A stretch of DNA of 64,000 bases from a virus. The notes below the pieces were generated by a model that saw only the letters and a program-made list of their open reading frames with translations, was not told the DNA's origin and did not search any database. This document shows, piece after piece, positions 6,404 to 54,182 of the stretch; position 1 is the first letter of the stretch; every line of letters starts with the position of its first letter. The stretch covers positions 4,848 through 68,847 of IMG/VR virus record IMGVR_UViG_3300042827_000007, one strand, 5' to 3'. A program made the position numbers and the translations under genes.

Positions 6404-6416
6404 GGAAGGCGAGGAC

Positions 6417-28830: not shown

Positions 28831-28877
28831 GTCGGCAGTCGTCGTTACCTCCACAGGATAACACCCCGTGCGTGATC
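28831..28877 (-). promoter_or_regulatory. Degenerate member of the repeated promoter family plus ACTGCCGAC leader
   Basis: Minus strand TCACGCACGGGGTG-TTATCCT-GTGGAGGTAACGACGACTGCCGAC; TGn extended -10. Confidence 0.55.
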
Positions 28878-29036
28878 CAGGGAAGCCCCCGCGGTCTCGT
28901 ACTTCCGGCGGAGCCGAGCCTTCGACGCCCGGCTGTTCTGGCGCTCCGGGTCGTACCACGGGCACGCCGGCCGGTGGCCGCGCTTGCGGGCCGTCCGGCG
29001 GCGGCACCCGCACTCCAGGCGGGACGCGGCCATCAC
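28845..29036 (-). CDS. Small basic Cys/His protein
   Basis: 63 aa, CGC..HRPAC; ATGA coupling; end overlaps the promoter motif. Confidence 0.5.
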   Translation of the reverse strand: MMAASRLECGCRRRTARKRGHRPACPWYDPERQNSRASKARLRRKYETAGASLDHARGVILWR

Positions 29037-30251: not shown

Positions 30252-30297
30252 GTCGGCAGCGGTCGTTACGCGCTCAGAATAACAGCCGGGCCGTGAT
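30252..30297 (-). promoter_or_regulatory. Degenerate member of the repeated promoter family plus leader
   Basis: Minus strand TCACGGCCCGGCTG-TTATTCT-GAGCGCGTAACGACCGCTGCCGAC. Confidence 0.55.
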
Positions 30298-30301
30298 CAA
30301 G

Positions 30302-30535
30302 CTAGAGGTACTTCGGGTCGGCCCGGACCGTGACCGCCCACTCATGATCGGAGAACCACCCGAACGTCGGGACGTCGAACTCCCCCGGGCGATGCCAGGA
30401 CGGCCGGTCCAGCCGATGGACCGGGGCCACCGCGGGCCGGCCGGCCTCCAGGTCTTCGCGCCACTTCCGCCACCGCTCGATCTCCGCGTCCCAGTCGTCG
30501 AGGTACGCGCGGTCCGGGCCGTCCTCCATGGTCAT
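30302..30535 (-). CDS. Hypothetical protein
   Basis: MTMEDGPD..., GGGGAG RBS. Confidence 0.65.
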   Translation of the reverse strand: MTMEDGPDRAYLDDWDAEIERWRKWREDLEAGRPAVAPVHRLDRPSWHRPGEFDVPTFGWFSDHEWAVTVRADPKYL

Positions 30536-36270: not shown

Positions 36271-36358
36271 TAGATGATCTGTGAAATTGCACCGTTGGAT
36301 CTTGCAATCTTGCAACCTGGACGAACTGCGTTTTTCAGGCGTGAAATTTCAGTGATCA
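36271..36358. promoter_or_regulatory. AT-rich intergenic segment with short repeats upstream of traB (candidate tra promoter/operator or clt)
   Basis: GTGAAATT at 36281 and 36341; tandem ATCTTGCA at 36299 and 36307; palindrome TGAAATTTCA. Confidence 0.45.
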
Positions 36359-37474
36359 TGCTTCGGATCTCTTAGGCACCGGGGCGTCTGTAGCCACCGG
36401 GCCACCCTGCAAGATTTCACCGTCATCCGCGGGCGTCGGCGTCGCAGCGCGTGACGTCACCGCGCGTGCCTCGCGCTCCTTCGAGACCCACAACTGAGCC
36501 GTGCGGGGCTTCACGCCGAGGGCCTGGCCGACGGTCTTCGCGTCCTCCGGCGGGTCAGCGTCAAGGCACCGCTTGATCACGTCGCCCCACCGCGGGTCGC
36601 GCGGGCCGGCCTGGCGGCCACCTCGTGCGGGCGCGGCCGGGGCGGGCCGGCGGGCCGCCCGCCGGGCGGCGCGGGCCGCGCGGGCGGCCTCCCTCTGCTC
36701 CGCGCCGACCTGAGCGGCGAGCACCGGGCCGAGGGCTTCGGCGGCCTCGATCTGCTCCGGGGTGAGCACCGACGGGCCAGCCGGCCAGGGCTCGGCGGCC
36801 GGCTCCGGGGCGGCCTCGACCGCGGGCGGCGGGGCCAGCTCAGCGACGGCGACCGGCAGCGGCAGGGACGGCACCTCGACCGGCTGGCGGGACGCGATGG
36901 CGTGGGCCGTCGCGAAGGCCAGGGACGGCCGGGCGGCGGGGGCGGCCAGGGCGTCGGCCAGGGCGTCGGCGACCAACCGCGGGGCCCGCCAGGCACGCCA
37001 CCGGGCCACGAGGCCGGGCCGGCGGGCGGCCACCTCGACGGGCTCGACGGCGGCCAGGCTGTGCTCCCGGCGGCGGGCGACGATGATCAGGGCGTGGAGG
37101 CTGGCGGCCAGGAAGACCGCGGGGAAGATCGAGGCGACCCGGCCCCACACGCTCCAGCGCTCATGGTCGGCGAAGCCCTCCGACGCGCCGACCTGAGCGG
37201 CGATGGCGACGCCGAGCCAGAACCAGGCGTACGCCCGGGTGCGCCAGTGTGCGTTACGCAGGTGGTACGTGAGGACCATCATCGTTACGGCGAAGACGTC
37301 CAGCGCAACCGGCGCACCCCACGGGAGCGGGTGGCGCAACTTCCACACCTTGTCGGCGAAGCCGTACGCCATCCACGCCTGGATGGCGAACTGCGTCAGC
37401 GCATTTGCGCCGATCAGCAACGCAACCGGGACGGGGATGCGCCGCAGCGAAGTAGAGCGAGTGTCGGCAGACAT
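36356..37474 (-). CDS. DUF2637-like (SpdA-like) four-TM protein with Pro/Ala linker and C-terminal HTH
   Basis: APVALDVFAV..AYAW..PAVFLAASLHAL; EDAKTVGQALGVKPRTAQLWV; TGC-TACGGT 7 nt before ATG (leaderless). Confidence 0.75.
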   Translation of the reverse strand: MSADTRSTSLRRIPVPVALLIGANALTQFAIQAWMAYGFADKVWKLRHPLPWGAPVALDVFAVTMMVLTYHLRNAHWRTRAYAWFWLGVAIAAQVGASEGFADHERWSVWGRVASIFPAVFLAASLHALIIVARRREHSLAAVEPVEVAARRPGLVARWRAWRAPRLVADALADALAAPAARPSLAFATAHAIASRQPVEVPSLPLPVAVAELAPPPAVEAAPEPAAEPWPAGPSVLTPEQIEAAEALGPVLAAQVGAEQREAARAARAARRAARRPAPAAPARGGRQAGPRDPRWGDVIKRCLDADPPEDAKTVGQALGVKPRTAQLWVSKEREARAVTSRAATPTPADDGEILQGGPVATDAPVPKRSEA

Positions 37475-37597
37475 GCGACGCACCGTAGCACGGATTGCGC
37501 CGCCGTGGTTACGCCGGGGGGATGACATGCGCCGATGCGTTTTGCACCGGGCGTGCGCCGGCCCCCGTGCGCTGGTTGCGCCGGGGGCCGGGGTGCG

Positions 37598-37870
37598 TCA
37601 GTCCATGTCGCCGGGCTTCGCGTACCACATGCTCTCCCAGATCTCCCGGGGAGTGCTCCCGTCGCGGAGGTCGTAGCCGACCCACACGCGGCAGTTGTTG
37701 TACGTCCAGTTCGCCGGGTCCTTCGCGAAGGCCAGGGCGTCGGCCTCGGTCCGGAAGCGCCGGCCCTCGACGCTGGCCGGGTGGATCGCGTTCCGGAAGC
37801 GGACCACGAACGGCCGACGCTGGGCCGAGGTGAGGCGGGCGGCGGGGGCGGGGGTGATGGTCTCGATCAT
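37598..37870 (-). CDS. Hypothetical protein driven by repeat promoter copy A
   Basis: 90 aa; GAGG RBS downstream of promoter at 37922-37965. Confidence 0.7.
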   Translation of the reverse strand: MIETITPAPAARLTSAQRRPFVVRFRNAIHPASVEGRRFRTEADALAFAKDPANWTYNNCRVWVGYDLRDGSTPREIWESMWYAKPGDMD

Positions 37871-37921
37871 GTCTGCCTCGATCTCTCTGGAGTTTTCAGG
37901 TCGTGCCTTGCTTGTACCCAT

Positions 37922-37965
37922 AGCCTAACCCCCGGGGCGTGACTGGCGCAACCCCCCGGGCGTGA
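37922..37965 (-). promoter_or_regulatory. Repeated promoter/operator, copy A
   Basis: TCACGCCCGGGGGG-TTGCGC-18 nt-TAGGCT on minus strand. Confidence 0.85.
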
Positions 37966-38015
37966 AAATCTTGGCTGGCCGCTCGGCCGCAGCTCAAGGC
38001 CCGGATGTGCCACCC

Positions 38016-38059
38016 TAACGCCCGGGGGGTTGACAGCCTCACCCCCGGGGCGTTAGGCT
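38016..38059 (+). promoter_or_regulatory. Repeated promoter/operator, copy B
   Basis: TAACGCCCGGGGGG-TTGACA-18 nt-TAGGCT. Confidence 0.85.
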
Positions 38060-38150
38060 GATGGCACAACACCACACAGGGAGCCGGAGCCGCAGCCCGG
38101 AGCAGGACCACCGCCCGCCGCGCCCCTCCCCCGAGAACCTGGAGCACACG

Positions 38151-38774
38151 ATGACCGAGACCACCGCCCCCGCGATCACCACCGCCGAGCGCAACTACCG
38201 CACCGTCAAGGCCATCTCGACCGGCTACACCGTCGCCACCCTCGGGGTCTCCGCCTTCCACCTCGTGGAGCTGTCGATCCACTTCGGCGGGGGCTGGCAG
38301 TCCTTCCTTGCGCCGGCCCTGGTCGACGGGTTCGTGATCCTCGGCAAGCTCGGCGACCGGCCCGGCATCGTCAAGTCCGCCCGCACCGCCTCCCGCGCCG
38401 TCTCGATCATCGCCGGGTCAGTCTCCCTGGCCGCGAACATCGCGATCGGGATCATCGACCACGCCCCCGCGGTCTCCCTGATCGGCGCGCTCGCCGTGAT
38501 CGGGTTCTGGGTCGCCGAGTTCCTGTCCCACAAGCTCCGCCCGACCACGAAGCGGCCGGCCGCCCCGAAGCCCGCCCCGAAGCCCGCCCCGGCCGCCGCC
38601 GCCCCGGCCGCCCCGGTCAAGTCCGCGAAGGACCCGAAGCGCGTCGAGGCCGCCCGCAAGGCCGCCGCCACCCGGGCCGCCCGCAAGGCCGCCCCGGTCG
38701 CCCCGGTCGCCCCGGTCAGCCACCCGGACGCCGCCGCCCTGGTCGACCACCGCACCCCCGCCGCCTACATCTGA
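38151..38774 (+). CDS. Second DUF2637-like membrane protein with Ala/Pro/Lys tail
   Basis: SAFHLVELS..GWQSFLAPALVDGF..VSLAANIA; four TMs; GGAG RBS. Confidence 0.7.
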   Translation: MTETTAPAITTAERNYRTVKAISTGYTVATLGVSAFHLVELSIHFGGGWQSFLAPALVDGFVILGKLGDRPGIVKSARTASRAVSIIAGSVSLAANIAIGIIDHAPAVSLIGALAVIGFWVAEFLSHKLRPTTKRPAAPKPAPKPAPAAAAPAAPVKSAKDPKRVEAARKAAATRAARKAAPVAPVAPVSHPDAAALVDHRTPAAYI

Positions 38775-38780
38775 CCGGCC

Positions 38781-38802
38781 GGCCCGCCCTCCGGGGCGGG
38801 CC
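38781..38802 (+). terminator. Cassette-closing hairpin
   Basis: GGCCCGCCC-TCCG-GGGCGGGCC just after stop. Confidence 0.65.
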
Positions 38803-38828
38803 CTCCCCCGGAAGAATCTTGACCCGGA

Positions 38829-38871
38829 TCACGCCCGGGGGGTTGCGCTCTCACCCCCCGGGCGTTAGGCT
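38829..38871 (+). promoter_or_regulatory. Repeated promoter/operator, copy C
   Basis: TCACGCCCGGGGGG-TTGCGC-17 nt-TAGGCT. Confidence 0.85.
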
Positions 38872-38904
38872 AGTGGTATCACCCCAACCGACCGGGAGGT
38901 CACC

Positions 38905-39270
38905 ATGAACGCCACCACCACCGCCCCGATCACCTTCTCCGCCGCCATCCCGGCGGTCTCCTTCCAGACGGTGGCCGGCGGCCGGGCGGTCCGGGTGCGG
39001 CGCGAGGGCAAGGGCGACACCTTCCTCCTGGTCCGCGACGACCGGGCGCGCTCGTACGACGTCTACCTCCTGGTCATGCAGGGTCAGGGCGTCGTCGGCC
39101 GGGTGGCGTGCGTCGACGGTGAGTGGATCTGGGAGCACGGCGTGTTCCGCAACTGGGAGGCCACCGGCACCCCGTTCCAGGTCTTCCCCTCGTCCACGGT
39201 CGAGACCCGGTGGGGCTTCGCGAACCGCGAGGACGCCGTGGCCGAGGCCGCCCTCTACTGGCTCTCCTGA
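38905..39270 (+). CDS. Hypothetical early protein
   Basis: 121 aa beta-rich; GGAGG RBS; sole gene of cassette C. Confidence 0.75.
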   Translation: MNATTTAPITFSAAIPAVSFQTVAGGRAVRVRREGKGDTFLLVRDDRARSYDVYLLVMQGQGVVGRVACVDGEWIWEHGVFRNWEATGTPFQVFPSSTVETRWGFANREDAVAEAALYWLS

Positions 39271-39275
39271 GCCGA

Positions 39276-39318
39276 TCACGCCCGGGGGGTTGACGCCTCA
39301 CCCCCCGGGCGTTACGCT
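39276..39318 (+). promoter_or_regulatory. Repeated promoter/operator, copy D
   Basis: TCACGCCCGGGGGG-TTGACG-17 nt-TACGCT. Confidence 0.85.
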
Positions 39319-39357
39319 TGACCCATACCGCACCGCTACTGCCGACAGGAGCCAGCC

Positions 39358-40374
39358 ATGAACCAGCTCGACGACGAGACCCGGGGAGACGCCCTCGGGG
39401 TCCGCGACCTCGGCCGCCGGTCCGTCGCCTTCGACCGCTTCCGCAAGCTGGCCGAGCGCAACGGCTACGAAGGTCGCCCCGGCGGATGGATCTACGACAC
39501 CCGCCGCCCCGGCGCGCCGGCCATCACGCAAGGCTGGCAGAAGTTCGCCCTCTACGTGCTGAACCAGGCCGTCCGCTTCCAGACCGCCGCCGAGTTCGAC
39601 GCCGCCGAGGCCGCCCTCCCGACCCCCGCCGCGCCGGCCCCCGCCGCCGCGCCGGTCGCCTGCCTTCACGCCGGATGCCACCCGGGCCGCTGCGTCTACG
39701 GCCGGCCGGTCACCCCGTCCGACCACGCGAACGACGTCGCCGCCACCCTGGCCGCCGCGCTCGGGGGCCGGTACGCCGTCCGGGTCGACGCCCGCGGACC
39801 GAACGGGTTCGCCGTGGTCGAGGACCACGAGACCCGGGACAACGCGGCCGTGTTCACCGGCCCGGACGCCGCGGAGCAGGCCGAGGACACGGCCGCCCGG
39901 CTCCGCGCCGGGGAGGACTACGTCGCCCGCCTGGTCGGCGGGACGACCGGCTCCGGCAAGACCACCGCCCCGGAGCCGACGCCCGGCGAGGTCGCGGAGG
40001 ACGTCCTCCGCGTCCTGGTCGACGACCTGGCCGCCACCGGGTGCGACACGGCCGCCCTGAACGTCACGCAGGCCGCGCGCCGGCTGTTCGGCCTCGACCT
40101 GGAGCGCGAGCGGCACCGCGGGACGGCCCGGTTCCACCACGACCGCCAGGTCCGGGAGAACACCCGACGCCCGGCCGGCCTGCCGGCTGGCGTCGCCGAC
40201 TACCGCCAGCCGTTGACCCCCGGCGAGCGCGCCGCGGGCGTGCTGGCCGTCGAGGACGGGCCCCGACCGACCCCGCTGTGCCTGCGGGCCGACGGGGAGC
40301 ACTGCCTCCACATGGCCGCCGTGACCCCGGCGTGCCGCGACCTGACCGACGACGACGCCGAGGCCGACATCTGA
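39358..40374 (+). CDS. Mosaic hypothetical early protein containing an isolated P-loop-like GTTGSGKT
   Basis: 338 aa; AGGAG RBS. Confidence 0.7.
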   Translation: MNQLDDETRGDALGVRDLGRRSVAFDRFRKLAERNGYEGRPGGWIYDTRRPGAPAITQGWQKFALYVLNQAVRFQTAAEFDAAEAALPTPAAPAPAAAPVACLHAGCHPGRCVYGRPVTPSDHANDVAATLAAALGGRYAVRVDARGPNGFAVVEDHETRDNAAVFTGPDAAEQAEDTAARLRAGEDYVARLVGGTTGSGKTTAPEPTPGEVAEDVLRVLVDDLAATGCDTAALNVTQAARRLFGLDLERERHRGTARFHHDRQVRENTRRPAGLPAGVADYRQPLTPGERAAGVLAVEDGPRPTPLCLRADGEHCLHMAAVTPACRDLTDDDAEADI

Positions 40375-40431
40375 CCGCCCTCCCGGGGGCCGGCCGCCGC
40401 CGGTCCCCGCCGCCCCTCCCTGGAGGAAGCC

Positions 40432-40668
40432 ATGAGCAAGATCCTTGTCGTCAGCGACGACGAGACCGCCCGCGTCGAGGTGATGACCCTCGCCGACCCG
40501 ACCGCCCCCGACGACCAGGACGAGCACCCGACGTTCCTCGCTCAGTGCCGGACCCCGGGGTGCGCGTGGAACAGCTTCGTCGACGAGAACACCGTCCACC
40601 TGTTCGAGGCGGACGCGATCAACGATGCGGAGATGCACCTCGACGAACACGAACACGCGGAAGCCTGA
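40432..40668 (+). CDS. Small acidic protein with Cys/His ligands
   Basis: 78 aa; CRTPGC..HLDEH; GGAGG RBS. Confidence 0.7.
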   Translation: MSKILVVSDDETARVEVMTLADPTAPDDQDEHPTFLAQCRTPGCAWNSFVDENTVHLFEADAINDAEMHLDEHEHAEA

Positions 40669-40674
40669 GAAGGA

Positions 40675-40718
40675 TCACGCCCCGGGGGTTGACGGACTCA
40701 CCCCCCGGGCGTTAGACT
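40675..40718 (+). promoter_or_regulatory. Repeated promoter/operator, copy E
   Basis: TCACGCCCCGGGGG-TTGACG-18 nt-TAGACT. Confidence 0.85.
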
Positions 40719-40724
40719 CGTGGT

Positions 40725-41021
40725 ATGACGACGACGCGGACCCGGATCACCTTCACCGCCTGCCCCGAGTGCCAGATCCCGACCGGGGTCCGCGGGCTCG
40801 CCCGGCACCGCGAAGCCGCTCACAACGTCGCCCCGGCGGTCAAGGGCCGCAAGGTCCGCCCGCTGGACCGGGCCGAGCGCGCCGTCCTGACCGAGGCCGC
40901 CGCCGGAGAGATCTCCGCCGCCCGGCTGGCCTACCGGACCACGATCACCAAACTGACCCGGGCCGGCTACCTCGCCGCTGACCTGACCATCACCGACGCG
41001 GGCCGCGCCCGTCTCTCCTGA
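40725..41021 (+). CDS. C2H2-type zinc finger + winged-helix-like small protein (leaderless)
   Basis: CPEC..LARHREAAH; TITKLTRAGYL..ITDAGRA; ATG 6 nt after -10. Confidence 0.7.
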   Translation: MTTTRTRITFTACPECQIPTGVRGLARHREAAHNVAPAVKGRKVRPLDRAERAVLTEAAAGEISAARLAYRTTITKLTRAGYLAADLTITDAGRARLS

Positions 41022-41075
41022 TCCACCCGCCGGGCGGGCCGGGAGGTCCGCCCCTCACCCCGGGAGTCTGCCGAC

Positions 41076-41312
41076 ATGTCCCGCCGCCGCTCCACCCGCT
41101 CGACCCACCGCGCCGGCTCCGCCGCCGCCTCCTTCCTGTTCGTCCTCGCCGTGGTCCTGGCGTGCGGCTCCCTCGCCGCCTGGACGCCCGCGCCGGACGG
41201 CCTGATCGGCTTCCTGGCCGTGGCCCTGGTCCTCGTGGGCGGGCTCGCCAGCGGCGGCCACTCCCGCGGGCACAGCCGGAGCCGGTCGCGCTCCCGCCGC
41301 CGCTACCGCTGA
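41076..41312 (+). CDS. Two-TM membrane protein with basic termini
   Basis: 78 aa; FLFVLAVVLACG; LIGFLAVALVLVGG. Confidence 0.65.
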   Translation: MSRRRSTRSTHRAGSAAASFLFVLAVVLACGSLAAWTPAPDGLIGFLAVALVLVGGLASGGHSRGHSRSRSRSRRRYR

Positions 41313-41327
41313 AACAATCTTGAGGAA

Positions 41328-41370
41328 TCACGCCCCGGGGGTTGCATCCTCACGCCCCGGGCGTTAGGCT
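41328..41370 (+). promoter_or_regulatory. Repeated promoter/operator, copy F
   Basis: TCACGCCCCGGGGG-TTGCAT-17 nt-TAGGCT. Confidence 0.85.
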
Positions 41371-41405
41371 ATGAGTATCAGCAAGACAGGGAACGAGATC
41401 CGGGA

Positions 41406-41939
41406 GTGATTCAGATGACGAAGGCCACCACCGCCCCCCGCAAGAGCCGCTACACCGACGAAGAGCGCGAGGCGTTCAAGGCTCAGCGCGCCGCCTACGT
41501 GGCCGCCCTCGACACCTTCGAGATCGAGCCGGAGACGGCGACCGAGATCGCGTTCGAGCGGCTGACCGAGCGCTACAGCGAGCGGAACTCCATGCTGATC
41601 CTGATCCAGTGCCCGGCCAGCTTCGGCGACGTCAAGGCCATGAGCAAGTGGAACGAGGACGGCCGGAAGATCAAGAAGGGCGCGAAGTCGATCTACATCC
41701 TGGCCCCGGCCGGCGACAAGCGGGCGGACGTCGAGATCGCCGACAAGCCCGCCGCCGACGCGAAGCCCGGCGAGGCCCCCTCGAAGAAGCGGTTCATCTG
41801 GGTCCGGGTCTTCGACCGCAGCCAGACCGAGCCCCTTCCGAGCGACTGGAAGCCCCGCACCCCGCGGGCCCCGCGCGCCGCGAAGGCCGCCCCGGTCGCC
41901 GCCACCCGGACCGCCGCCCTGGACGACTTCCTCTCCTGA
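41406..41939 (+). CDS. ArdC N-terminal-like ssDNA-binding (antirestriction-family) protein
   Basis: YSERNSMLILIQCP..KWNEDGRKIKKGAKSIYILAP..VFDRSQTE. Confidence 0.78.
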   Translation: MIQMTKATTAPRKSRYTDEEREAFKAQRAAYVAALDTFEIEPETATEIAFERLTERYSERNSMLILIQCPASFGDVKAMSKWNEDGRKIKKGAKSIYILAPAGDKRADVEIADKPAADAKPGEAPSKKRFIWVRVFDRSQTEPLPSDWKPRTPRAPRAAKAAPVAATRTAALDDFLS

Positions 41940-41945
41940 CCACCC

Positions 41946-41973
41946 GGGCCCGGCCCCCGCGGGGGCCGGGCCC
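41946..41973 (+). terminator. Hairpin after ArdC-like gene
   Basis: GGGCCCGGCCCCC-GC-GGGGGCCGGGCCC. Confidence 0.6.
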
Positions 41974-41995
41974 CTCTGTCCCGAAGGGGGACGGC

Positions 41996-42415
41996 ATGAC
42001 GAAGATCCAAGACATCGCGAACGCCCCGAAGATCCTCCAGCGCCAGGCGGAGCACGCCCTCACGGCCGCGTACGCCTCCAGCGCTCGACTGACGAAGATC
42101 CGCGAAGCCCTCGGCGTCACCGGGAAGACGTACCTCGGGGAGGTCGTCACCCTGGACGGCTCCGCCCTGGACGACGACGACCCGGAGAGCTACCGGGCCG
42201 GGGTCTACGCGGTCGAGACGCACGGGAGCGGGTTCGGGACCGCCTGGACCACCCTCGTCCGCGGGCACACCGACCACATGCATTTCACCGGCCAGGCCGC
42301 CCGCTGGTCCGCGATCTTGCACGCTATCGCCCTGGTCCACGGCGACGGCGACTCGCACGCGACCGGCGCGTTCTACGCCGGCCGGGTCCTCGGCCTCCCG
42401 CAGGACCAGCCGTGA
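41996..42415 (+). CDS. Hypothetical protein
   Basis: MTKIQDIANAP...; AAGGGGG RBS. Confidence 0.7.
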   Translation: MTKIQDIANAPKILQRQAEHALTAAYASSARLTKIREALGVTGKTYLGEVVTLDGSALDDDDPESYRAGVYAVETHGSGFGTAWTTLVRGHTDHMHFTGQAARWSAILHAIALVHGDGDSHATGAFYAGRVLGLPQDQP

Positions 42416-42771
42416 CCGGCGACGACCTGGAGCCCTACGACGACGAGGGAGTCCCGGAGATCACCGGCTCCGACCTACTCGGCCCGGACGGGCCGCGGGT
42501 CCTAGATCAGAAGTGCCCGACGTGCATCTTCCGCCCGGGGAACCCGATGAAGCTCCGGCCCGGCCGGGTCCACGGCATGGTGGAGGACAGCCTCCGCGGG
42601 GGCGGGTTCATCACCTGTCACCAGACCCTCCCGTACGGCGGTCACGGCGACGTCCGGCCGGCCGTGTGCCGCGGGTTCTTCGACGCGCACGGGGAGCGCT
42701 CGAACCTGCTCCGGGTGTGGAGCAGGCTCGGCGGGTTCGACTTCGTCCCGCCGCCGGCCGACCACGACTGA
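42412..42771 (+). CDS. Cys-rich hypothetical protein
   Basis: CPTCIFRPGN..TCHQT..VCRGFFDAH. Confidence 0.75.
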   Translation: MTGDDLEPYDDEGVPEITGSDLLGPDGPRVLDQKCPTCIFRPGNPMKLRPGRVHGMVEDSLRGGGFITCHQTLPYGGHGDVRPAVCRGFFDAHGERSNLLRVWSRLGGFDFVPPPADHD

Positions 42772-42776
42772 ACGAA

Positions 42777-42819
42777 TCACGCCCGGGGGGTTGCGCTCTC
42801 ACCCCCCGGGCGTTAGACT
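42777..42819 (+). promoter_or_regulatory. Repeated promoter/operator, copy G
   Basis: TCACGCCCGGGGGG-TTGCGC-17 nt-TAGACT. Confidence 0.85.
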
Positions 42820-42848
42820 GTGGGTACAACACCAGAGAGGAACCCGAG

Positions 42849-43001
42849 ATGCGCGAGATCAAGATCGTCCAGCGGAACTACGACGGTCAGGGGAACGACC
42901 GGACTTTCCGGTTCTGGCGCAAGGCCGACGAGGTGGACACCTTCGTCGAGCGCAAGTCCCGGGCCTTCAACATGGCCCGGACCACGATCACCGTTCGCTG
43001 A
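42849..43001 (+). CDS. 50-aa hypothetical early protein
   Basis: MREIKIVQRNYDG...; GAGAGGA RBS; followed by hairpin. Confidence 0.65.
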   Translation: MREIKIVQRNYDGQGNDRTFRFWRKADEVDTFVERKSRAFNMARTTITVR

Positions 43002-43008
43002 GCCTCGG

Positions 43009-43033
43009 TCCGGCCGGTCACGAACCGGCCGGA
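43009..43033 (+). terminator. Hairpin after 50-aa gene
   Basis: TCCGGCCGGT-CACGA-ACCGGCCGGA. Confidence 0.55.
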
Positions 43034-43062
43034 GCCGTAGCCCAAACGAAAGGACCCCGATC

Positions 43063-43827
43063 ATGAAGCACGGAGACATCCAGGCCGACGGCACCGTCTA
43101 CTGGTACGACAAGCGGCAGGACTGGGGGAAGTACATCAGCCCCGCCTACGACCGCGGGCCGGTCGTCCGCGTCGGCACCGAGCGCTACGAGGGCGGCTCC
43201 GGGCGCTGGTCCCGCAGCGCCAGCGACTACTACGCCGACCCGAAGGGGAAGTACGTCAAGGTCCAGCCGATGGCCGTCGACGGCACCACGCCGGACGGGA
43301 ACCCGCGGTTCGTCCTCACGGCGCACATCCGCGACACGTACTCCGCCGTGAAGGAGCGGTACAACCTCGCCGCCGAGGCCGAGGCCCGCCGCGAGGCCGA
43401 CCGCGCGGCGAAGGCCGACGACGCCGCCCGCCGGGCGAAGGCCCTCCGCGCGAGGCTCGCCGCCCTGGACCTCCTGGACGCCGTCCGGGTCACCTCGACC
43501 GACGGGAAGGCGTGGGGCACGACCCCGGGCGTCCGGGTCGAGTGGTGCCGCGCGGCCGAGAGTGCCCTCTCCGACGTCCTCGACCGCCTGGAGGCGAAGA
43601 CCGACGACGCCGCATGGCGCGCCGGCTACGCCGAGGGGGAGCTGGTCGCCGACGCCGCCCGGGACGCCGCCCTCGGCTACACCCTTCGGCCGGAGCAGGC
43701 CGCCGCGCTGGCCCGCGCCGAGGAAGGACTCCGCACGGCCCCGCCGTCGGCCCGGCCCGTCGAGCGGGTCGCGAAGTATGACCCGGAGTTCGCCGACCGC
43801 CTGGCGAACGGCGCGTACGAGCACTGA
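43063..43827 (+). CDS. Hypothetical protein (beta-rich N-terminus, helical C-terminus)
   Basis: GAAAGGA RBS; 254 aa. Confidence 0.7.
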   Translation: MKHGDIQADGTVYWYDKRQDWGKYISPAYDRGPVVRVGTERYEGGSGRWSRSASDYYADPKGKYVKVQPMAVDGTTPDGNPRFVLTAHIRDTYSAVKERYNLAAEAEARREADRAAKADDAARRAKALRARLAALDLLDAVRVTSTDGKAWGTTPGVRVEWCRAAESALSDVLDRLEAKTDDAAWRAGYAEGELVADAARDAALGYTLRPEQAAALARAEEGLRTAPPSARPVERVAKYDPEFADRLANGAYEH

Positions 43828-43832
43828 GAAAG

Positions 43833-43875
43833 TCACGGCCGGGGGGTTGTGCCATCACCCCCCGGCGGTTATTCT
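43833..43875 (+). promoter_or_regulatory. Repeated promoter/operator, copy H
   Basis: TCACGGCCGGGGGG-TTGTGC-17 nt-TATTCT. Confidence 0.8.
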
Positions 43876-43967
43876 GAGAGGGTAAGCAAGGCCGGGGGAT
43901 ACGCGACCAGGGGCACCCGCCCTACCGACTCGCTTCCCCCGGCCACCCGAACCGACAGAGACAGGAG

Positions 43968-44321
43968 GTGACAGCTCAGATGCCAGGCCGAGACCCCGAA
44001 GCCGCGGAGCGGTCCTCGCGCGTAGCCGATGCAATTCGCGCCGAGATGAAGCATCAGGGCCTAACCGGTGCAGGGCTGCGAGACAAGCTCCGCGAGGCCG
44101 GGGTCCAGGTCCCGAACGACATGTGGATCACCCGCCGGCTGACCGGCCAGGTGAACCTCGTCGAGCCGGTCCGGGTCGTCTACGGGCCGAGCGATGACCT
44201 CGAAGCCATCGCCTCGGTCCTCAAGGTCGACCCGGCCCGGTTCGTTCGGGTCCTGAACCGCAACGCCAGCAAGACCAGCAAGGACAGCAAGCCCGCTCCG
44301 TCGGCCGCCGCCGACAAGTAA
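43968..44321 (+). CDS. HTH (XRE/Cro-like) transcriptional regulator
   Basis: VADAIRAEMKHQGLTGAGL..WITRRLTGQV..DLEAIASVLKV. Confidence 0.7.
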   Translation: MTAQMPGRDPEAAERSSRVADAIRAEMKHQGLTGAGLRDKLREAGVQVPNDMWITRRLTGQVNLVEPVRVVYGPSDDLEAIASVLKVDPARFVRVLNRNASKTSKDSKPAPSAAADK

Positions 44322-44335
44322 CCACAGGAGAACCC

Positions 44336-45607
44336 GTGGAACTCACCGCCCGCAACACCGACCTCCAGACCCTCGCCGACCTTCTCCGCACGCAGGAGGG
44401 CGCGAAGGCGGACGCGATCATCGCCGGCTCGAAGATCGAGGCCACCCGCGACGGGAAGATCCGGATCTCGGACACGGTCCCGCTGGAGGTCGCCGAGGCT
44501 CAGTTCGACGAGAACGGCGTGACCCCCGCCCGGTACCTCGACATGAACGGCGAGTACGAACTGACGGACATCGCCCTCGGCCACTTCGCCGAGCGTCTGG
44601 GCATCGACCGCCGGTACCTCCGCAAGCTGGCCGACAAGCGGCCGGACATCCTGGCCGCGAACATCAATGGCTGGCTGTCCGGCTCCGTCATGCCGAACGT
44701 CGAGGGCTTCGAGGCCGCCGACCCCGACGGCCGGGCGTTCACCGTCCGCTCGTTCCAGACCCCCGACGGCAACCTGTTCCGGGGCCTGCTCTCCGACCGG
44801 TACTCCGTGATCGACAACCTCGACACCATGAACGCGGTCTTCGAGGGCATCCGGGCCGCCGGGTTCAGCCGGGACGACCTGGAGATCTCCGGGTGCGACC
44901 TGACCGAGAACCGGATGCGTGTCCGGGTCCTCGTCCCCGCCGCCGTCATCGCCGCACCGAAGCTGTTCGAGGGCTACCGGAACCCGTTCGAGGGCCGGGA
45001 CGTCCGGGTCGGCGGGCGGGGCGGCTGGACGATCGAGCAGGCCCGCGCCGCCGCCGAGCGCGAGGGCCAGGGCTACACCCCCGGGTCGGAGCCGATCATG
45101 TGGGCCGGGTTCGAGTTCGGGAACGGCGAACTCGGCGACGCCGCGACGTACGTCCTCCCGCGGGCCGAGGCCCGGATCTGCCGGAACGGCCTCGTCCTCC
45201 CGCTGGACGTCTCCCGGAAGCAGCACGTCGGCGAGCGCCTGGACGAGGGCGTGATCGACTGGTCCGCCGAGACCCGGAAGCGCCAGCTCGCCCTGATCAC
45301 CTCGAAGGTCTCCGACGCCGTCCGCAAGTTCTCGTCCGTCGAGTTCTGGACGGCGAAGGTCGCGGAGCTGGAAGAGCAGGCCGCGAAGCCCGTCACCGAC
45401 GCCGACAAGACGATCAAGGCCGTGAGTAAGGCCCTGCGGTACAGCGAGGCGGAGCAGACCTCCATCCTGGACATGTTCATCCACGGCGGGCAGATGACCG
45501 CCGGTGGCGTGATGAACGCCGTCACGGCCGCCGCGCAGACCATCGCCGACCCCGACCGGGCGGCCGAGATCGAGCGGACCGCGGTCCGGGCCCTCGCCGC
45601 CGTCTGA
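44336..45607 (+). CDS. DUF932/DUF945-like protein
   Basis: RGLLSDRYSVIDN..FEFGNGELG..ICRNGL..GVMNAVTAAAQ. Confidence 0.75.
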   Translation: MELTARNTDLQTLADLLRTQEGAKADAIIAGSKIEATRDGKIRISDTVPLEVAEAQFDENGVTPARYLDMNGEYELTDIALGHFAERLGIDRRYLRKLADKRPDILAANINGWLSGSVMPNVEGFEAADPDGRAFTVRSFQTPDGNLFRGLLSDRYSVIDNLDTMNAVFEGIRAAGFSRDDLEISGCDLTENRMRVRVLVPAAVIAAPKLFEGYRNPFEGRDVRVGGRGGWTIEQARAAAEREGQGYTPGSEPIMWAGFEFGNGELGDAATYVLPRAEARICRNGLVLPLDVSRKQHVGERLDEGVIDWSAETRKRQLALITSKVSDAVRKFSSVEFWTAKVAELEEQAAKPVTDADKTIKAVSKALRYSEAEQTSILDMFIHGGQMTAGGVMNAVTAAAQTIADPDRAAEIERTAVRALAAV

Positions 45608-49597: not shown

Positions 49598-50494
49598 GTG
49601 CGACCGCAACTCAAGCGCGCCGGCCGGAACCGCTGGTACGTCGACCTCGACTCCCCGGTCCCCGGCCAGGCCGCCGACCTCGACCCGAAGAAGGTCAAGT
49701 ACCAGCGCATCCCCGGCGTGACGACGATCGTCCGGAACGGGATGCCGAAGGAAGCGCTCATGAACTACGCGGGCACGGCGACCGCGGACTACGCCGTGAA
49801 CAACTGGGAAGAGCTGAGCGCGCTCCCCGCGGCCGAGCGGCTGTCCCGGCTGAACAAGGGCCGGTACGAGTCCCGGGACAACGCCGCACAGCGCGGCCAG
49901 CAAGTCCACCAACTCGCGCAGAAACTCGTCCGAGACCAGGAGGTCCCCGTCCCGCCGGAGCTGGAGGGCTACGTCGCCGCCGCCGTCCGGTTCATGGACG
50001 AGTTCGCGATCGAGCCGATCGTGGAAGAGCTGACCGTGTTCTCCCCGAAGCACTACTACTGCGGGACACTCGACCTCGGCGCGTACTGCGAGATCCCCGA
50101 CCTGGCCGAGTACGAGTGGATTCCCCTCATGGAGGACGGCCGCGCCCGGGGCCTGTTCGACTACAAGCTGAGCCGGTCCGGGATCTGGGGCGACGTCGCG
50201 TACCAGCTCGCGCCGTACCGGTTCGCCGAGTTCTGCCTCATGCCTGACGGCGAGGGCGGGTTCGAGATCGACTCCGTCCCCGAGTTCGACTTCGCCGCCG
50301 GGGTCCACCTCCGGCCCGACGGCACGTACTCCGTGATCCCCGTCGAGTGCGAGATCCAGCAGTTCGAGGACTTCCTGACGATCATGGCTAACGCCGCAGT
50401 CGTCGACCGCTCGAAGGATCTCATCCTGTCCGAGATCATCCCGCCGCGGACCTCCCGGTTCCGCCTGACGAAGACTGCCGAGGCCGCATCATGA
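49598..50494 (+). CDS. PD-(D/E)XK exonuclease (Cas4/RecE-like recombination nuclease)
   Basis: PGVTTIV, RGQQVH, E..YCGTLD, FDYK, YQLAPY. Confidence 0.85.
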   Translation: MRPQLKRAGRNRWYVDLDSPVPGQAADLDPKKVKYQRIPGVTTIVRNGMPKEALMNYAGTATADYAVNNWEELSALPAAERLSRLNKGRYESRDNAAQRGQQVHQLAQKLVRDQEVPVPPELEGYVAAAVRFMDEFAIEPIVEELTVFSPKHYYCGTLDLGAYCEIPDLAEYEWIPLMEDGRARGLFDYKLSRSGIWGDVAYQLAPYRFAEFCLMPDGEGGFEIDSVPEFDFAAGVHLRPDGTYSVIPVECEIQQFEDFLTIMANAAVVDRSKDLILSEIIPPRTSRFRLTKTAEAAS

Positions 50495-51396
50495 CCGAGC
50501 CCGTCCAGGGCCACCCCCTGATGAAGATCACGCCGGAGCTGTGCGCCGCCCTGGCGAAGCTCCAGGCCGACCTCCCGAAGATCGACCGAGACCGTGAGGT
50601 CGAGGTCGAGACGAAGGGCGACAAGCCGAACTACTCGTACAGCTACGCCACCCTCGCGCACGTCACACAGAAGATCATGCCGGAGCTGGCGAAGAACGGC
50701 CTCTCGTACTCGGCGTACCCGGGGATGTCCGTCGACGGCAAGGGGATGTGCCTGCGGTACTTCCTGCTCCACGAGTCCGGCGGGTACATCGGCGGGGAGT
50801 TCCCCATCGCCGGGGAGGGCGGCATCCAGGGCGTCGGCGGACGGATCACGTACGCGAAGCGGTACGCGCTCCTGGCCGTGACCGGACTCGCCGCCGAGGA
50901 AGACGACGACGCCGCCCGCGCTCAGGCCGAGGACGACGCGAACGCGAAGCCCGGCACCGCCCGGCGCAACCCGCGGGCGGCCGAGGCCCGGACCGAGCGG
51001 GCCGCCGCGAACACGGCGAAGCGCAACCAGCGCGGCGCGTCGCCGACCTCGCCCGCGCCGGCCGGGGCCGAGGGCGACCAGGGCCCGCGGGAGGTCCGCA
51101 ACCCCGACGACGGGGTGTCCGGCGACCAGCAAACGAAGCTGATCATGCAGTTCAAGGATCTTGCCGAGCGGACCGGGGCCGGAGCGTCCAGGGAGCAGCG
51201 ACTCGCGATGGTCTCGACGTTGCTCGGCTTCCAGGTCGGGTCGATCACGGAGCTGACGAAGGGCCAGGCCCACGAACTGATCTCGACCGTGGACTCCGCG
51301 CTCGCGACGGACGACCCGCTCGGCGTCCTCCGCCGCGTCGGTGAGGACGTCGCGAACCGCCAGGCCGAATCCACGCACGCAGGGAGCCCCGAGTGA
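50491..51396 (+). CDS. erf: ERF-family single-strand annealing protein
   Basis: LAKLQADLP..YSYATL..GLSY..GRITYAKRYAL..G..AEEDDDA. Confidence 0.9.
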   Translation: MTEPVQGHPLMKITPELCAALAKLQADLPKIDRDREVEVETKGDKPNYSYSYATLAHVTQKIMPELAKNGLSYSAYPGMSVDGKGMCLRYFLLHESGGYIGGEFPIAGEGGIQGVGGRITYAKRYALLAVTGLAAEEDDDAARAQAEDDANAKPGTARRNPRAAEARTERAAANTAKRNQRGASPTSPAPAGAEGDQGPREVRNPDDGVSGDQQTKLIMQFKDLAERTGAGASREQRLAMVSTLLGFQVGSITELTKGQAHELISTVDSALATDDPLGVLRRVGEDVANRQAESTHAGSPE

Positions 51397-52408: not shown

Positions 52409-52888
52409 ATGAGCATAGACGCTGAGACCAGAGACCAGGGCCTTGCGGCACAGCGCGCGTACCTCGCCCGGGTCGGCGTGCCGCAGATCCCCGCGTGGCG
52501 GTACGAGCAGGAGGGCGGCCGGGCCTGGACCCGGTGGGCCCGGTGCGGCCAGCACAACGCGGACGCGCCGGACCCCGAACTGTTCTTCGCGCTGTTCGCG
52601 GACAGCACCGACACGTACGCCGCTCAGGCGTACTGCCGGGAGTGCCCGGTCCGGGAGGTGTGCGACGAGACCGCGACGCGCGCCGGCTGGTCCGGGGTGT
52701 GGGGCGGGATCTACCGGGACGGCCACGGCCGCCGGTCCCCGCTGTGCACGTCGATCGGGTGCATGAGCTACCGGCTCCCCGGGCGGGACATGTGCACCGG
52801 GTGTTCGCGGCGCGCCGCGAACGCCGCCGAGGCCGACGTCCCCGCGGCCGTGGTCACCGGCCCGGTTAGGGAGGTGGTGCCCGTATGA
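52409..52888 (+). CDS. whiB: WhiB-family Fe-S transcription factor with extra C-terminal Cys4 finger
   Basis: ARC..PELFF..CRECPVREVC..GVWGG; then CTSIGC..CTGC. Confidence 0.9.
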   Translation: MSIDAETRDQGLAAQRAYLARVGVPQIPAWRYEQEGGRAWTRWARCGQHNADAPDPELFFALFADSTDTYAAQAYCRECPVREVCDETATRAGWSGVWGGIYRDGHGRRSPLCTSIGCMSYRLPGRDMCTGCSRRAANAAEADVPAAVVTGPVREVVPV

Positions 52889-53870: not shown

Positions 53871-54182
53871 ATGCGCTGGACCGAGATCGAGGCCCACGCC
53901 GCGGAGCGGGAGATCCCGACGCCGACGTACCGACTCATGGACAAGTGGACCCGGGAGGGCCTGCTCACGTCCGAGAACCGGGGCGACCGGCACGGCCGCT
54001 ACCGGTGGTGGCCGCCCGCCGAGGTCGAGGTGGCCCTGGCCGTCGCCCGGCTGACCGCGGTCGGACTGACCGTCGAACTCGCGTTCACGCTCGCCCGCAT
54101 GGAGCCTGACAGCACCGGAGCCCGCACGGCCGTCGACGTGTCCGCACGCCCGCCGGTCACGGTCTCCGTGTCCTGGGGCTGA
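53871..54182 (+). CDS. MerR-like HTH protein
   Basis: TYRLMDKWTREGLL..GRYRWW..EV..VARL..GL. Confidence 0.7.
   Translation: MRWTEIEAHAAEREIPTPTYRLMDKWTREGLLTSENRGDRHGRYRWWPPAEVEVALAVARLTAVGLTVELAFTLARMEPDSTGARTAVDVSARPPVTVSVSWG

Follow-up and report, generated by a model that had tools for sequence, protein, structure and literature searches.

Background

In T4-type myoviruses, promoter-early stem-loop (PeSL) cassettes (Arbiol et al., 2010, PMC2839356; Comeau et al., 2014, PMC4122927) combine a repeated, strong host-sigma early promoter with a G-run/C-run stem-loop placed between -35 and -10 or overlapping them. They are concentrated in a plastic, ORFan-rich region, where the element bounds indels and replacements between relatives and each cassette comes with a promoter and an insulator of its own. 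The operators of restriction-modification controller (C) proteins (e.g., C.Esp1396I and C.AhdI) are adjacent pairs of quasi-palindromic dimer sites with 'dual symmetry' in the -35 region, bound by a pair of small Xre-fold dimers that are encoded just downstream and autoregulatory; the tetramer on two adjacent operators occludes -35 (PMC3351150). In lambdoid phages, the 17-bp quasi-palindromic sites of OR and OL, which serve Cro and CI, lie over -35 and -10 of strong early promoters, including a divergent pair; one of these promoters expresses a small HTH protein. Lambda CII sites (TTGC-N6-TTGC) are 4-bp direct repeats on both sides of a poor, activator-dependent -35. The stoperators of cluster A phages are 13-bp sites, single and asymmetric, that occur throughout the genome. 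Cluster O mycobacteriophages have leaderless SigA-type promoters and a 17-bp dyad repeat, present more than 30 times per genome and not coupled to promoters (PMC4351075). Like stoperators, these repeats are short conserved sites, many per actinobacteriophage genome, presumed to serve one phage protein.

The window analysed here is 64,000 nt of virus record IMGVR_UViG_3300042827_000007 (positions 4,848 to 68,847), from an uncultivated, high-GC actinomycete siphophage in which repeated units head small early genes. The units share the PeSL features given above, and the comparison with T4-type promoter/stem-loop cassettes made in a first-pass annotation holds well. Unlike PeSLs, they belong to an unrelated lineage and host and have no sequence relation to them; their arms straddle -35, are 13 bp long and nearly fixed in sequence, are kept across strongly diverged phages and are each quasi-palindromic; they lack an AT-rich upstream region, bar a short AAGAATCTT in some copies; and a conserved HTH gene lies behind the last unit. 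PeSL promoter, terminator and mini-circle activities are described, whereas the units here are known from sequence. We conclude that this new phage lineage has a PeSL-like system of promoter/hairpin cassettes, whose units probably also have a dedicated operator function.

The paired sites also resemble C-protein operators, and C proteins are the best structural matches of F10, the candidate regulator. However, the unit sites are 17 bp long, lie 22-23 bp apart centre to centre, are GC-rich, reach -10 and recur at 8-12 promoters, not one. There is no C-box and F10 is only a weak HTH profile match, so the likeness is not one of sequence-level membership, and binding of F10 to the units is putative. 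As in lambdoid operators, 17-bp quasi-palindromic sites lie over -35 and -10, a divergent promoter pair is included and a gene for a small HTH protein lies behind one promoter. In contrast to them, there are two sites per promoter rather than three and the arrangement recurs many times along the array. Nothing points to lysogeny, and neither an integrase nor a long CI-like repressor was seen. The sites are short, conserved and repeated, like stoperators and cluster O repeats, but they are paired and built into each promoter. Lambda CII sites and the units both have repeated boxes on either side of -35. The analogy with lambda CII drawn in the annotation is nevertheless not supported, because the 17-bp boxes co-vary as an inverted pair and most -35 hexamers are good.

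Anatomy of the repeat units

All eight annotated copies, of 43-44 bp, lie at their annotated positions (Table 1); pattern searches covered the window and the 76,412-bp virus record. They stand at the heads of small early-gene cassettes and are always oriented with the downstream gene. Each has -35 TTGNNN, a spacer of 17-18 nt and -10 TAGRCT, all within two boxes whose starts are 22-23 nt apart. Spacer and box distance were as annotated; the repeat itself was also correctly seen, but its box, described as 14 nt, is better given as 17 nt (TMAC-S-CCC-S-GGG-S-GTTR). Each box is quasi-palindromic, and a second symmetry axis relates box 1 to box 2. GTAY, said to follow often 4 nt past -10, does so in 5/8 units. 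The proximity of units to the previous stop codon was confirmed: in the six that follow a gene, box 1 starts 5-54 nt past the stop (5-6 nt in four, including 5 nt in unit 3; 15 and 54 nt in the other two). Units 6 and 2 are identical over 41 nt. Unit 7 has a 5' UTR of ~98 nt, and its counterparts in several relatives are likewise degenerate.

Table 1. Positions of repeat units, hairpins and genes in the window.
Feature	Coordinates	Strand	Description
Half-unit	28841-28897	-	Box 2-like site; -10 TATCCT; same conserved leader as 30262-30320; upstream of leftward ORF
Half-unit	30262-30320	-	Box 2-like site; -10 TATTCT; conserved leader; directly past stop codon; precedes leftward ORF starting 30239
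Leftward unit	37922-37965	-	Box 1 37965-37949; box 2 37942-37926; -10 TAGGCT 37927-37922; predicted start near 37915; heads 90-aa ORF (ATG 37870) and leftward block
Rightward unit 1	38016-38059	+	-35 TTGACA, 18-nt spacer, -10 TAGGCT; heads 207-aa membrane protein 38151-38774
Small early genes	38151-43827	+	13 genes in six cassettes; one ArdC-N-like product, the others lacking a significant family match
Stand-alone hairpin	38775-38828	+	GC-rich; after first gene
Unit 2	38829-38871	+	Perfect 13-bp arms; heads 121-aa ORF 38905-39270
Unit 3	39276-39318	+	Heads ORFs 39358-40374 (338 aa) and 40432-40668 (78 aa)
Stand-alone hairpins	40375-40431, 41022-41075, 41940-41995, 43002-43062		In intra-cassette gaps; similar to 38775-38828 hairpin
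Unit 4	40675-40718	+	TTGACG, 18 nt, TAGACT, 6 nt, ATG 40725; heads 40725-41021 and 41076-41312
Unit 5	41328-41370	+	Weakest hairpin, two arm mismatches; heads 41415-41939, 41996-42415 and 42412-42771
Unit 6	42777-42819	+	Heads 42849-43001 (50 aa) and 43063-43827 (254 aa)
Unit 7	43833-43875	+	Degenerate boxes (ACGGCC, CCGGCGG); predicted promoter of candidate regulator and long replication operon
Candidate regulator F10	43980-44321	+	113-aa Xre/controller-protein-like HTH; first gene behind last, degenerate unit
ERF-family single-strand annealing recombinase	50491-51396	+	PF04404, E 8e-16

With up to two mismatches, the 17-nt box pattern matched 25 times in the window (0.21 expected from shuffles), and all matches bar one weak one fall within 37926-43871. 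The paired-box pattern matched seven times in the whole record, always in the array (reversed-pattern control: 0). No full units beyond the eight were found in the record, and the paired unit was not found in 185,579 prokaryote genomes. Two half-units consist of box 2 and -10 only, in the same fixed register; without box 1, a hairpin is impossible.

Inverted symmetry and hairpins

The two boxes pair with each other in 93.9% of alignment cells, and about 10 of the roughly 36 non-Watson-Crick cells are G-U. Inter-box covariation is 0.113, against 0.049 in shuffles (0/500 reach 0.113); as the units are paralogous and evolve in concert, a few events of spread, not selection, may account for it. 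The same analysis found no covariation of the intra-box palindrome. Taken as a pair, the boxes co-vary like a single large inverted repeat and not like direct repeats.

The 13-bp stems of the arms have energies of -21 to -37 kcal/mol. Rightward unit 1 has the strongest hairpin potential (-36.6 kcal/mol, z -4.5), and in three of the eight units the energy is barely beyond that of GC-matched shuffles (z -0.7 to -1.4). No U tract follows the unit stem. The stand-alone hairpins (-25 to -45 kcal/mol) all differ from one another in sequence. Every gene of the array has a strong hairpin, stand-alone or the unit's, within a few nt of its 3' end. The annotated cassettes "often closed by a hairpin" are thus partly borne out: hairpins are present, but the stand-alone ones lie inside cassettes or after the first gene, and most cassettes end with no hairpin other than the inverted repeat of the unit itself.

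Promoter prediction and RNA contigs

In hexamers and spacer the units look like actinomycete housekeeping-sigma promoters, as previously suggested. Start sites of S. coelicolor have -10 TANNNT at 80% and -35 NTGACC at 59%, leaderless mRNAs make up 21%, and actinomycete promoters are frequently without -35 (PMC4895711). At three units (40725 here and two in the relative G001) an ATG lies exactly 7 nt past -10, which would imply leaderless mRNAs. Numbered from ATG 40725, the box centres of unit 4 are at -42 and -19. A scan with the E. coli consensus called only 1/8 units a promoter, which speaks against the promoter reading.

Metatranscriptome contigs from four soil runs give weak support to the predicted starts: they begin 8-22 nt downstream of them at 6/8 units, although contigs are poor markers of RNA ends and repeats can break assemblies. 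Contigs start at 38083 (rightward unit 1), 38896 (unit 2), 40747 (unit 4) and 41393 (unit 5), and one ends at 37907, by the leftward unit. At unit 7, contigs of the four runs start at 43867, 43890, 43891 and 43896, one of them 15 nt upstream of the predicted start. The only contig running through a unit (40747-41429) passes unit 5.

Variation among related phages

The unit is present in about nine metagenomic phages related to this one. Core genes flanking the array are conserved, and the interior varies in cassette number (from 1-2 to about 12 units), content and order. Cassettes are gained, lost and in one case reordered, and the junctions of these differences fall at units, in agreement with the cassette exchange proposed in the annotation. 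Homology to L038 jumps within a single unit: on its upstream side the match is to the gene before unit 42777, on its downstream side to the gene after unit 39276. Several "one-sided" homologies between relatives at the nucleotide level reflect fast divergence, not non-homology.

Units are more alike within genomes (80.4%) than between them (73.1%; permutation p < 0.0002), and variants particular to one lineage have come to occupy most of the units in a genome. Concerted evolution of the units within genomes is therefore demonstrable. About ten phage genomes, with coding DNA just 63-75% identical, retain the arm ACGCCC-S-GGGCGT. Both boxes persist at divergent promoters, where there is no upstream gene to terminate, and distant relatives have kept the boxes and lost the -35 TTG.

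Candidate regulator

Of three HTH candidates put forward as binding partners, the gene annotated at 43968 (43980 here) is conserved in every relative (21 homologues, 49-75% identity; 71% in G001). Its product, F10, matches the profile phrog_4583 'transcriptional repressor' (E 6e-4). The best folds for its AF2 model are C.BclI, C.Esp1396I, Xre regulators and lambda cI NTD, with the BldD DNA-binding domain also among the matches, all at weak E-values (0.08-0.6) on a model of pLDDT 69. The homodimer model scored 0.69 (best control 0.00), a mark reached by 21/30 solved homodimers and 0/23 solved monomers. The closest complete relative, with the same units, lacks the Xre candidate at 164. In the conserved candidate at 53871-54182 (49% identical in G001) no DNA-binding domain is recognisable. 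That a single regulator acts on all units is plausible. Alternative binders to F10 could be the conserved protein 53871-54182 or a host factor.

Proposed function and alternatives

We hold, with moderate confidence, that the unit is a composite module (promoter, bipartite operator, hairpin and recombination joint) that heads one early transcription unit each in this siphophage of soil actinomycetes. Host RNA polymerase with the housekeeping (HrdB-type) sigma factor would start transcription on the A of the conserved GTAY, ~7 nt past -10. The promoter would lie inside the dyad, whose 17-bp boxes, centred near -42 and -19, form the putative bipartite operator. Two dimers of F10 may bind there and turn the early cassettes off once F10 accumulates. 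The boxes of F10's own promoter are weakened, which would leave the regulator-replication operon active. When transcripts of the upstream gene read through, the dyad in the RNA would fold into a 13-bp GC hairpin a few nt past the stop codon. Inside cassettes, stand-alone hairpins hold this slot; a further role of the dyad is therefore probably to insulate or stabilise the transcript upstream of it. With ~44 bp of nearly identical sequence repeated from cassette to cassette, the units would serve as exchange points where cassettes are gained, lost and re-ordered via homologous recombination, perhaps by the phage ERF protein.

A pure PeSL-type module without a dedicated DNA-binding protein, with the hairpin as terminator, attenuator or 3' stabiliser and uniformity arising from concerted evolution, is a less likely reading. 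It would account for the strong 13-bp stems, the hairpin close behind every array gene, the G-U cells, the weakest hairpin being the one passed by RNA and the concerted evolution of units. The same GGGG...CCCC stems occur in T4-type PeSLs, where experiments have shown terminator activity (PMC2839356). However, the half-units, which cannot form a hairpin, still keep box 2 in register with -10. The arm sequence is conserved across diverged phages, although the stand-alone hairpins, all different, indicate that any GC stem would serve. The boxes persist at divergent promoters, and the stem without a following U tract also speaks against a hairpin function alone. We prefer the operator reading, which is further supported by boxes kept in relatives without the -35 TTG and by inter-box covariation above shuffles.

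The bound protein might instead be chiefly an activator, or a controller-like activator turned repressor, with a box 1 dimer recruiting sigma region 4 and box 2 repressing later. The centre of box 1 relative to the leaderless ATG (-42) is the class II and lambda PRM activator position, distant relatives have boxes without a -35 TTG, and the controller proteins closest in fold to F10 work exactly so. This is nevertheless improbable: -35 hexamers are good in the phage and its nearest relatives (TTGACN/TTGCNN), early genes must fire ahead of any phage protein, the spacer is filled by box 2, a typical repressor position, and a missing -35 is common in actinomycete promoters anyway (PMC4895711).

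Imperfect palindromes between ORF cassettes whose content varies among relatives could also be dedicated sites of recombination or mobile elements (integron attC-like, or a MITE/REP-like palindrome), their promoter likeness being incidental. We regard this as very improbable, as no integrase or transposase was recognised in the searched parts of the record, the units follow the direction of the downstream gene and keep hexamers, spacer length and, in three cases, an ATG at +1, and the paired unit is absent from the 185,579 prokaryote genomes searched. Least probable of all is binding by a host transcription factor rather than a phage protein: the outer TNAC...GTNA of the box recalls actinomycete regulators such as BldD, whose DNA-binding domain is among the F10 fold matches, but these outer bases are 9 nt apart, not 5, and the single box has 87 matches scattered over all phyla in 596 Gb (185,579 genomes), with no actinomycete enrichment and no host regulon.

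Cassette genes and exchange

No significant family match was found for 12 of the 13 cassette proteins; the product of 41415-41939 has an ArdC-N/anti-restriction-like match. The description of these genes as a "host-takeover battery" is not supported, because it was based on position only. The ERF recombinase encoded downstream is a plausible engine for exchange between units of 40-60 bp.

Anatomy of the repeat unit

We identified eight copies of a 43-44 bp unit within 37800-44100 (seven plus-strand, one minus-strand), at exactly the positions reported in the first-pass annotation. With up to two mismatches, the 17-nt box pattern matches the window 25 times (0.21 expected from shuffles), and all matches but a single weak one lie inside 37926-43871. 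The units are confined to 6 kb, and in the 76,412-bp IMG/VR record of this phage, which is complete according to CheckV, the paired box pattern occurs at the array positions only.

Each unit consists of box 1 (TMAC-S-CCC-S-GGG-S-GTTG), 5-6 nt, box 2 (TMAC-S-CCC-S-GGG-S-GTTA) and the remainder of the -10 element. The TTG of the -35 element forms the final three bases of box 1, and the TA of the -10 element (TAGRCT) the final two bases of box 2. The previously described spacings (22-23 nt for the boxes and a 17-18 nt spacer) were reproduced, and the GTAY said to follow the -10 element is present in five of the eight copies. Six units follow a gene; in four of these, box 1 starts 5-6 nt downstream of the gene's stop codon. 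Upstream of three of the eight units is a short AAGAATCTT-like motif; the remaining units abut a stop codon.

An AT-rich, short palindromic motif, AAGAATCTTG (inverted sense TCAAGATTT), is found a few nucleotides 5' of box 1 in some units (38812-38821, 41313-41322 and 37966-37975), as well as in the related metagenomic phages and loci G001, L037, L040, L041 and L043. It matches the window eight times (0.58 expected), takes the place of box 1 in some half-units (box 2 and the -10 element only) of relatives, and could be an UP-like element or a second binding site. A conserved transcript leader 3' of the -10 element, GGTAA(C/G)(G/C)AC..CTGCCGAC..GGAG, is common to both half-units of the window (28841-28860(-) and 30262-30280(-)) and many units of distant relatives (L040, L041, L042), and its GTAAGCA also occurs at unit 43833. 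This leader might mark the +1 context or represent a shared 5' end read by some factor.

Repeat units, genes and related features of the window
Feature	Position	Strand	Remarks
Leftward unit	37922 (start)	-	
Unit 1	38016 (start)	+	
Unit 2	38829 (start)	+	
Unit 3	39276 (start)	+	
Unit 4	40675 (start)	+	
Unit 5	41328 (start)	+	
Unit 6	42777 (start)	+	
Unit 7	43833 (start)	+	
Half-unit	28841-28897	-	box 2 in register with -10, box 1 absent
Half-unit	30262-30320	-	box 2 in register with -10, box 1 absent
Xre protein	164-691	-	175 aa, clear HTH_31/HTH_3
DUF2637/SpdB-like protein	36356-37528	-	390 aa, adjoins array, conserved in relatives
ArdC N-terminal/anti-restriction-like cassette protein	41415-41939		phrog_7245 E 7e-7; Pfam ArdcN E 0.005, below cut-off
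119-aa gene	42412-42771		
5' UTR of candidate regulator	43882-43979		98 nt
Candidate regulator	43980-44321	+	first gene behind last unit, 113 aa, conserved Xre fold
ERF recombinase	50491-51396		annealing protein
WhiB-like protein	52409-52888		
DUF5131 protein	54247-55062		

Promoter signals and transcription

The arrangement TTGNNN, 17-18 nt, TAGRCT is present in all eight units. In Streptomyces coelicolor, TANNNT is found at 80% of start sites and an NTGACC -35 element at 59%, and 21% of mRNAs are leaderless (PMC4895711). Since the unit hexamers match these actinomycete elements, the units fit host housekeeping promoters. An E. coli-type promoter scan, the consensus of which is ill-suited to actinomycete signals, passed one unit of eight, and an E. 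coli-type terminator scan, also ill-suited to actinomycetes, detected no relevant U-tract terminator. At unit 40675 only 6 nt separate the -10 element from the ATG of ORF 40725-41021, so a leaderless mRNA is predicted; the same arrangement recurs at two units of G001. With leaderless numbering, the centres of the two boxes lie at -42 (box 1) and -19 (box 2).

Parts of 37000-45000 are represented, at 95-100% identity, in five soil metatranscriptome runs drawn from different studies, and the phage or its close kin thus appears to be transcribed in soils. Contigs from four of the five runs were placed on the region. Of the eight predicted start sites, six have contig ends 8-22 nt downstream (38083, 38896, 40747, 41393, 43890, 43891 and 43896, and 37907 leftward), although contigs cannot establish RNA ends and DNA may be present. 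Two contigs deviate: the first begins at 43867, which is 15 nt before the start predicted for unit 7, and the second (40747-41429) runs across the unit that has the weakest hairpin. Contig depth is greatest over the operon behind the last unit. The contig ends thus lend weak support to the promoters, and overall we consider it highly probable that the units are real and function as promoters. The contigs also display strain variation at the SNP level, and one run has 9 nt deleted at 37837.

Symmetry of the boxes

For this phage and its relatives together, 33-42 units were compared for symmetry. Position i of box 1 is complementary to position 18-i of box 2 in 93.9% of cells (33 units), and covariation between the boxes is 0.113, compared with 0.049 after shuffling; none of 500 shuffles reached the observed score. 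The centre pair flips, being G-C in 15 units and C-G in 10. The covariation may rest on few events, given the concerted evolution of the units described below. Symmetry within each box was rejected as the selected feature, as the intra-box palindrome breaks at positions 5 and 13 and does not covary. A direct-repeat arrangement of the lambda CII type fits worst and is ruled out on the same two positions. Thus, each unit is best described as a single large inverted repeat whose 13-bp arms, each itself quasi-palindromic, are separated by a 9-10 nt loop that contains most of the -35 element.

RNA hairpin or DNA operator

The inverted repeat could act in RNA or be recognized in DNA. The folding energies of the units as RNA are -21 to -37 kcal/mol, with stems of 11-13 bp (perfect 13-bp stems in three units) and z-scores of -0.7 to -4.5. 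A stand-alone GC hairpin (-25 to -45 kcal/mol) directly follows the stop codon in every intergenic gap inside the cassettes, and at most cassette ends the unit dyad fills this same slot. This suggests an additional role for the dyad in read-through RNA, namely insulation or 3' stabilization, as in the promoter/stem-loop cassettes (PeSLs) of T4-type phages. Over the units, an Rfam search of 37000-45000 returned sub-threshold miRNA-hairpin noise alone.

Several features argue for sequence-specific recognition at the DNA level. Each stand-alone hairpin has a different sequence, whereas the unit arms are near-invariant among phages that share 63-75% identity in coding DNA. Half-units, found in two relatives and twice in the window, keep box 2 in its register with the -10 element although without box 1 they are unable to form the hairpin. 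Both boxes are kept at divergent promoters that have no upstream gene to terminate, and they persist in distant relatives even where the -35 TTG has been lost. A search of 185,579 prokaryote genomes (596 Gb) with the single box yielded 87 matches scattered across all phyla and no host regulon, which also counts for DNA-level recognition. The two 17-bp boxes are consistent with an operator pair, that is, quasi-palindromic sites of 14-20 bp over a core promoter. On balance, the odds slightly favor the units doubling as operators for the Xre-like protein of the candidate regulator gene (43980-44321); that they double as RNA hairpin insulators is an even call.

Candidate regulators

The candidate regulator of the units is the controller-protein-like helix-turn-helix (HTH) gene behind unit 7. 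We identified 21 homologues at 49-75% identity, one in each relative seen, and a weak match to a PHROG annotated as transcriptional repressor. In its AF2 model, of moderate quality (pLDDT 69), the best structural matches are restriction-modification controller proteins, Xre regulators, ClgR and the N-terminal domain of lambda cI (TM 0.7-0.78 by target, E 0.08-0.6). The homodimer model scored 0.69 compared with 0.00 for the best of three controls; among solved structures, 21 of 30 homodimers and none of 23 monomers reached this mark.

The arms of the regulator's own unit are degenerate, as are those of its counterparts in several relatives, so that the regulator operon would stay on while the other units are shut. 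No integrase was identified among the proteins searched within the window and both record ends, which makes temporal early shut-off likelier than lysogenic immunity. The regulator's 5' UTR folds as a long hairpin, GGCCGGGGGA...TCCCCCGGCC (-41 kcal/mol), and has no Rfam match. The UTR begins with GGCCGGGG, a stretch also conserved in L035, L038 and L039, and in L040 a related 32-mer is tandemly duplicated.

Two other HTH genes had been proposed in the first-pass annotation. The Xre protein near the left end was rejected as the shared regulator, because G001 has units and no homologue of it; the gene is accessory and outside the shared control circuit. The protein at 53871 (103 aa) is conserved, but a DNA-binding domain is not recognizable.

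Probable cassette exchange at the units

Relatives were recovered by pattern scans and by look-ups via the conserved gene behind the last unit. They comprise the complete phage G001 (79,451 bp, approximately 12 units), metagenome contigs L035-L038 and loci L039-L045. The paired unit is absent from the 185,579 prokaryote genomes, and hence no prophage copy or host was found. Near and distant DNA searches of GenBank phages gave no match; there is no isolated relative for comparison. Among GenBank phage proteins, the terminase reaches at most 26% identity and the cassette proteins have no match.

All relatives share a left flank, a leftward-transcribed gene for a DUF2637/SpdB-like membrane protein, and a right flank composed of a variable 200-330-aa protein, a unit, the HTH gene and a 420-aa phrog_1362 protein. 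Between them, gene families vary by phage, and array size ranges from just 1-2 units and three small genes in L043 up to 8-12 units in this phage, G001 and L038. The cassette gain and loss suggested earlier is borne out, as cassette number, content and, in one case, order differ among relatives with junctions at units. For example, the 119-aa gene precedes the o50/254-aa cassette in this phage, L042 and L044, and in L038 the cassette of a 338-aa gene comes next instead; in this phage the latter cassette lies 3 kb upstream, reversing the order. Nucleotide homology to L038 changes partner inside a single unit. One-sided nucleotide homology as proof of non-homology was partly rejected, since homologues at the protein level may also lack a blastn hit, as does the fast-evolving family before the last unit.

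Units are more similar within a genome (80.4%) than between genomes (73.1%; permutation p < 0.0002), and lineage-specific variants extend over most units of a genome, such as a box 1 shorter by 1 nt in L038 and the TTGTGATC loop in L035 and L037. Such concerted evolution provides direct evidence for recombination or conversion between units. We conclude that the units probably bound exchangeable cassettes. The G001 record (IMGVR_UViG_3300034031_000020) ends (79392-79451) in a long C homopolymer within the array, between units 78908 and 302. Probably the record is circularly permuted there or its assembly is broken, which may leave one cassette incomplete.

Comparison with known systems

The PeSLs are the closest described system. 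In PeSLs, a repeated sigma-70 early promoter carries a G-run/C-run stem-loop that lies over or between its hexamers; these elements cluster among ORFans in hyperplastic regions, where they act as recombination joints (PMC2839356, PMC4122927). The earlier analogy to them holds in sequence and comparative features: promoter consensus, stem-loop, plastic ORFan region, and insertions, deletions and replacements between related phages that are bounded by units. Unlike PeSLs, the units occur in a phage lineage and host unrelated to the T4-like, have arms that straddle the -35 element and are strongly conserved in sequence with dual symmetry, and are accompanied by a conserved HTH gene. The proposed operator logic resembles that of lambdoid operators and of controller-protein operators, and for the latter dual symmetry is described (PMC3351150). 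The parallel drawn to lambda CII sites fails, as those are short direct repeats around the weak -35 element of activator-dependent promoters, whereas the boxes here covary as inverted repeats and this phage has good -35 hexamers. Mycobacteriophage stoperators are numerous in a genome, each being a single, asymmetric 13-bp site that follows the direction of transcription and binds the immunity repressor; the sites here are symmetric, paired and restricted to promoters. N4-type hairpin promoters probably do not match either. Integron attC sites can be dismissed, as they involve an IntI-type integrase and promoterless cassettes ending in attC, whereas no integrase is among the proteins searched and the units contain promoter sequences in the same orientation as the gene that follows.

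A more speculative possibility, which we consider less likely than not, is a self-contained, plug-and-play early-gene system in which one 44-bp module would be promoter, operator, insulator and recombination patch. The host promoter would contain a dual-symmetry operator for a dedicated dimer pair of the controller-protein-like regulator, the hairpin would insulate the upstream transcript, and unit homology would let ERF-type recombination swap ORFan cassettes between co-infecting phages. If so, PeSL-like shuffling with its own master switch would have evolved independently in actinomycete siphophages. Such modular shuffling has hitherto been described for T4-like myoviruses of Gram-negative hosts. 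The same logic in unrelated, uncultivated soil actinomycete phages (a repeated early promoter with an embedded stem-loop, bounding ORFan cassettes that vary among relatives) suggests a convergent, general route by which phages maintain rapidly evolving early genes that are both expressed and exchangeable. As the arms have a conserved sequence and double symmetry and are accompanied by a small, conserved HTH protein, a single site may serve both regulation and recombination. The unit may also be viewed as a compact Streptomyces-type promoter and insulator, probably strong and possibly repressible.

Cassette genes and neighboring genes

Twelve of the 13 cassette proteins have no significant family match (Pfam, PHROGs). 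The ArdC-N-like match of the remaining protein is the sole functional hint among the early cassette genes, and the earlier label of host takeover is otherwise one of position. The variable cassettes define a place to search for anti-defence or host-takeover genes.

The 390-aa protein left of the array resembles DUF2637/SpdB-like membrane proteins with HTH_23 from actinomycete plasmids, a lead from language-model features (0.87-0.92) that agrees with a plasmid-transfer-like module noted separately in the first-pass annotation. ERF recombinase, WhiB-like and DUF5131 genes are present elsewhere in this phage. The relative L039 encodes additional SsgA and CsrA-like genes (6036-6806), and the SsgA gene, together with WhiB genes in relatives, points to a sporulating actinomycete host.
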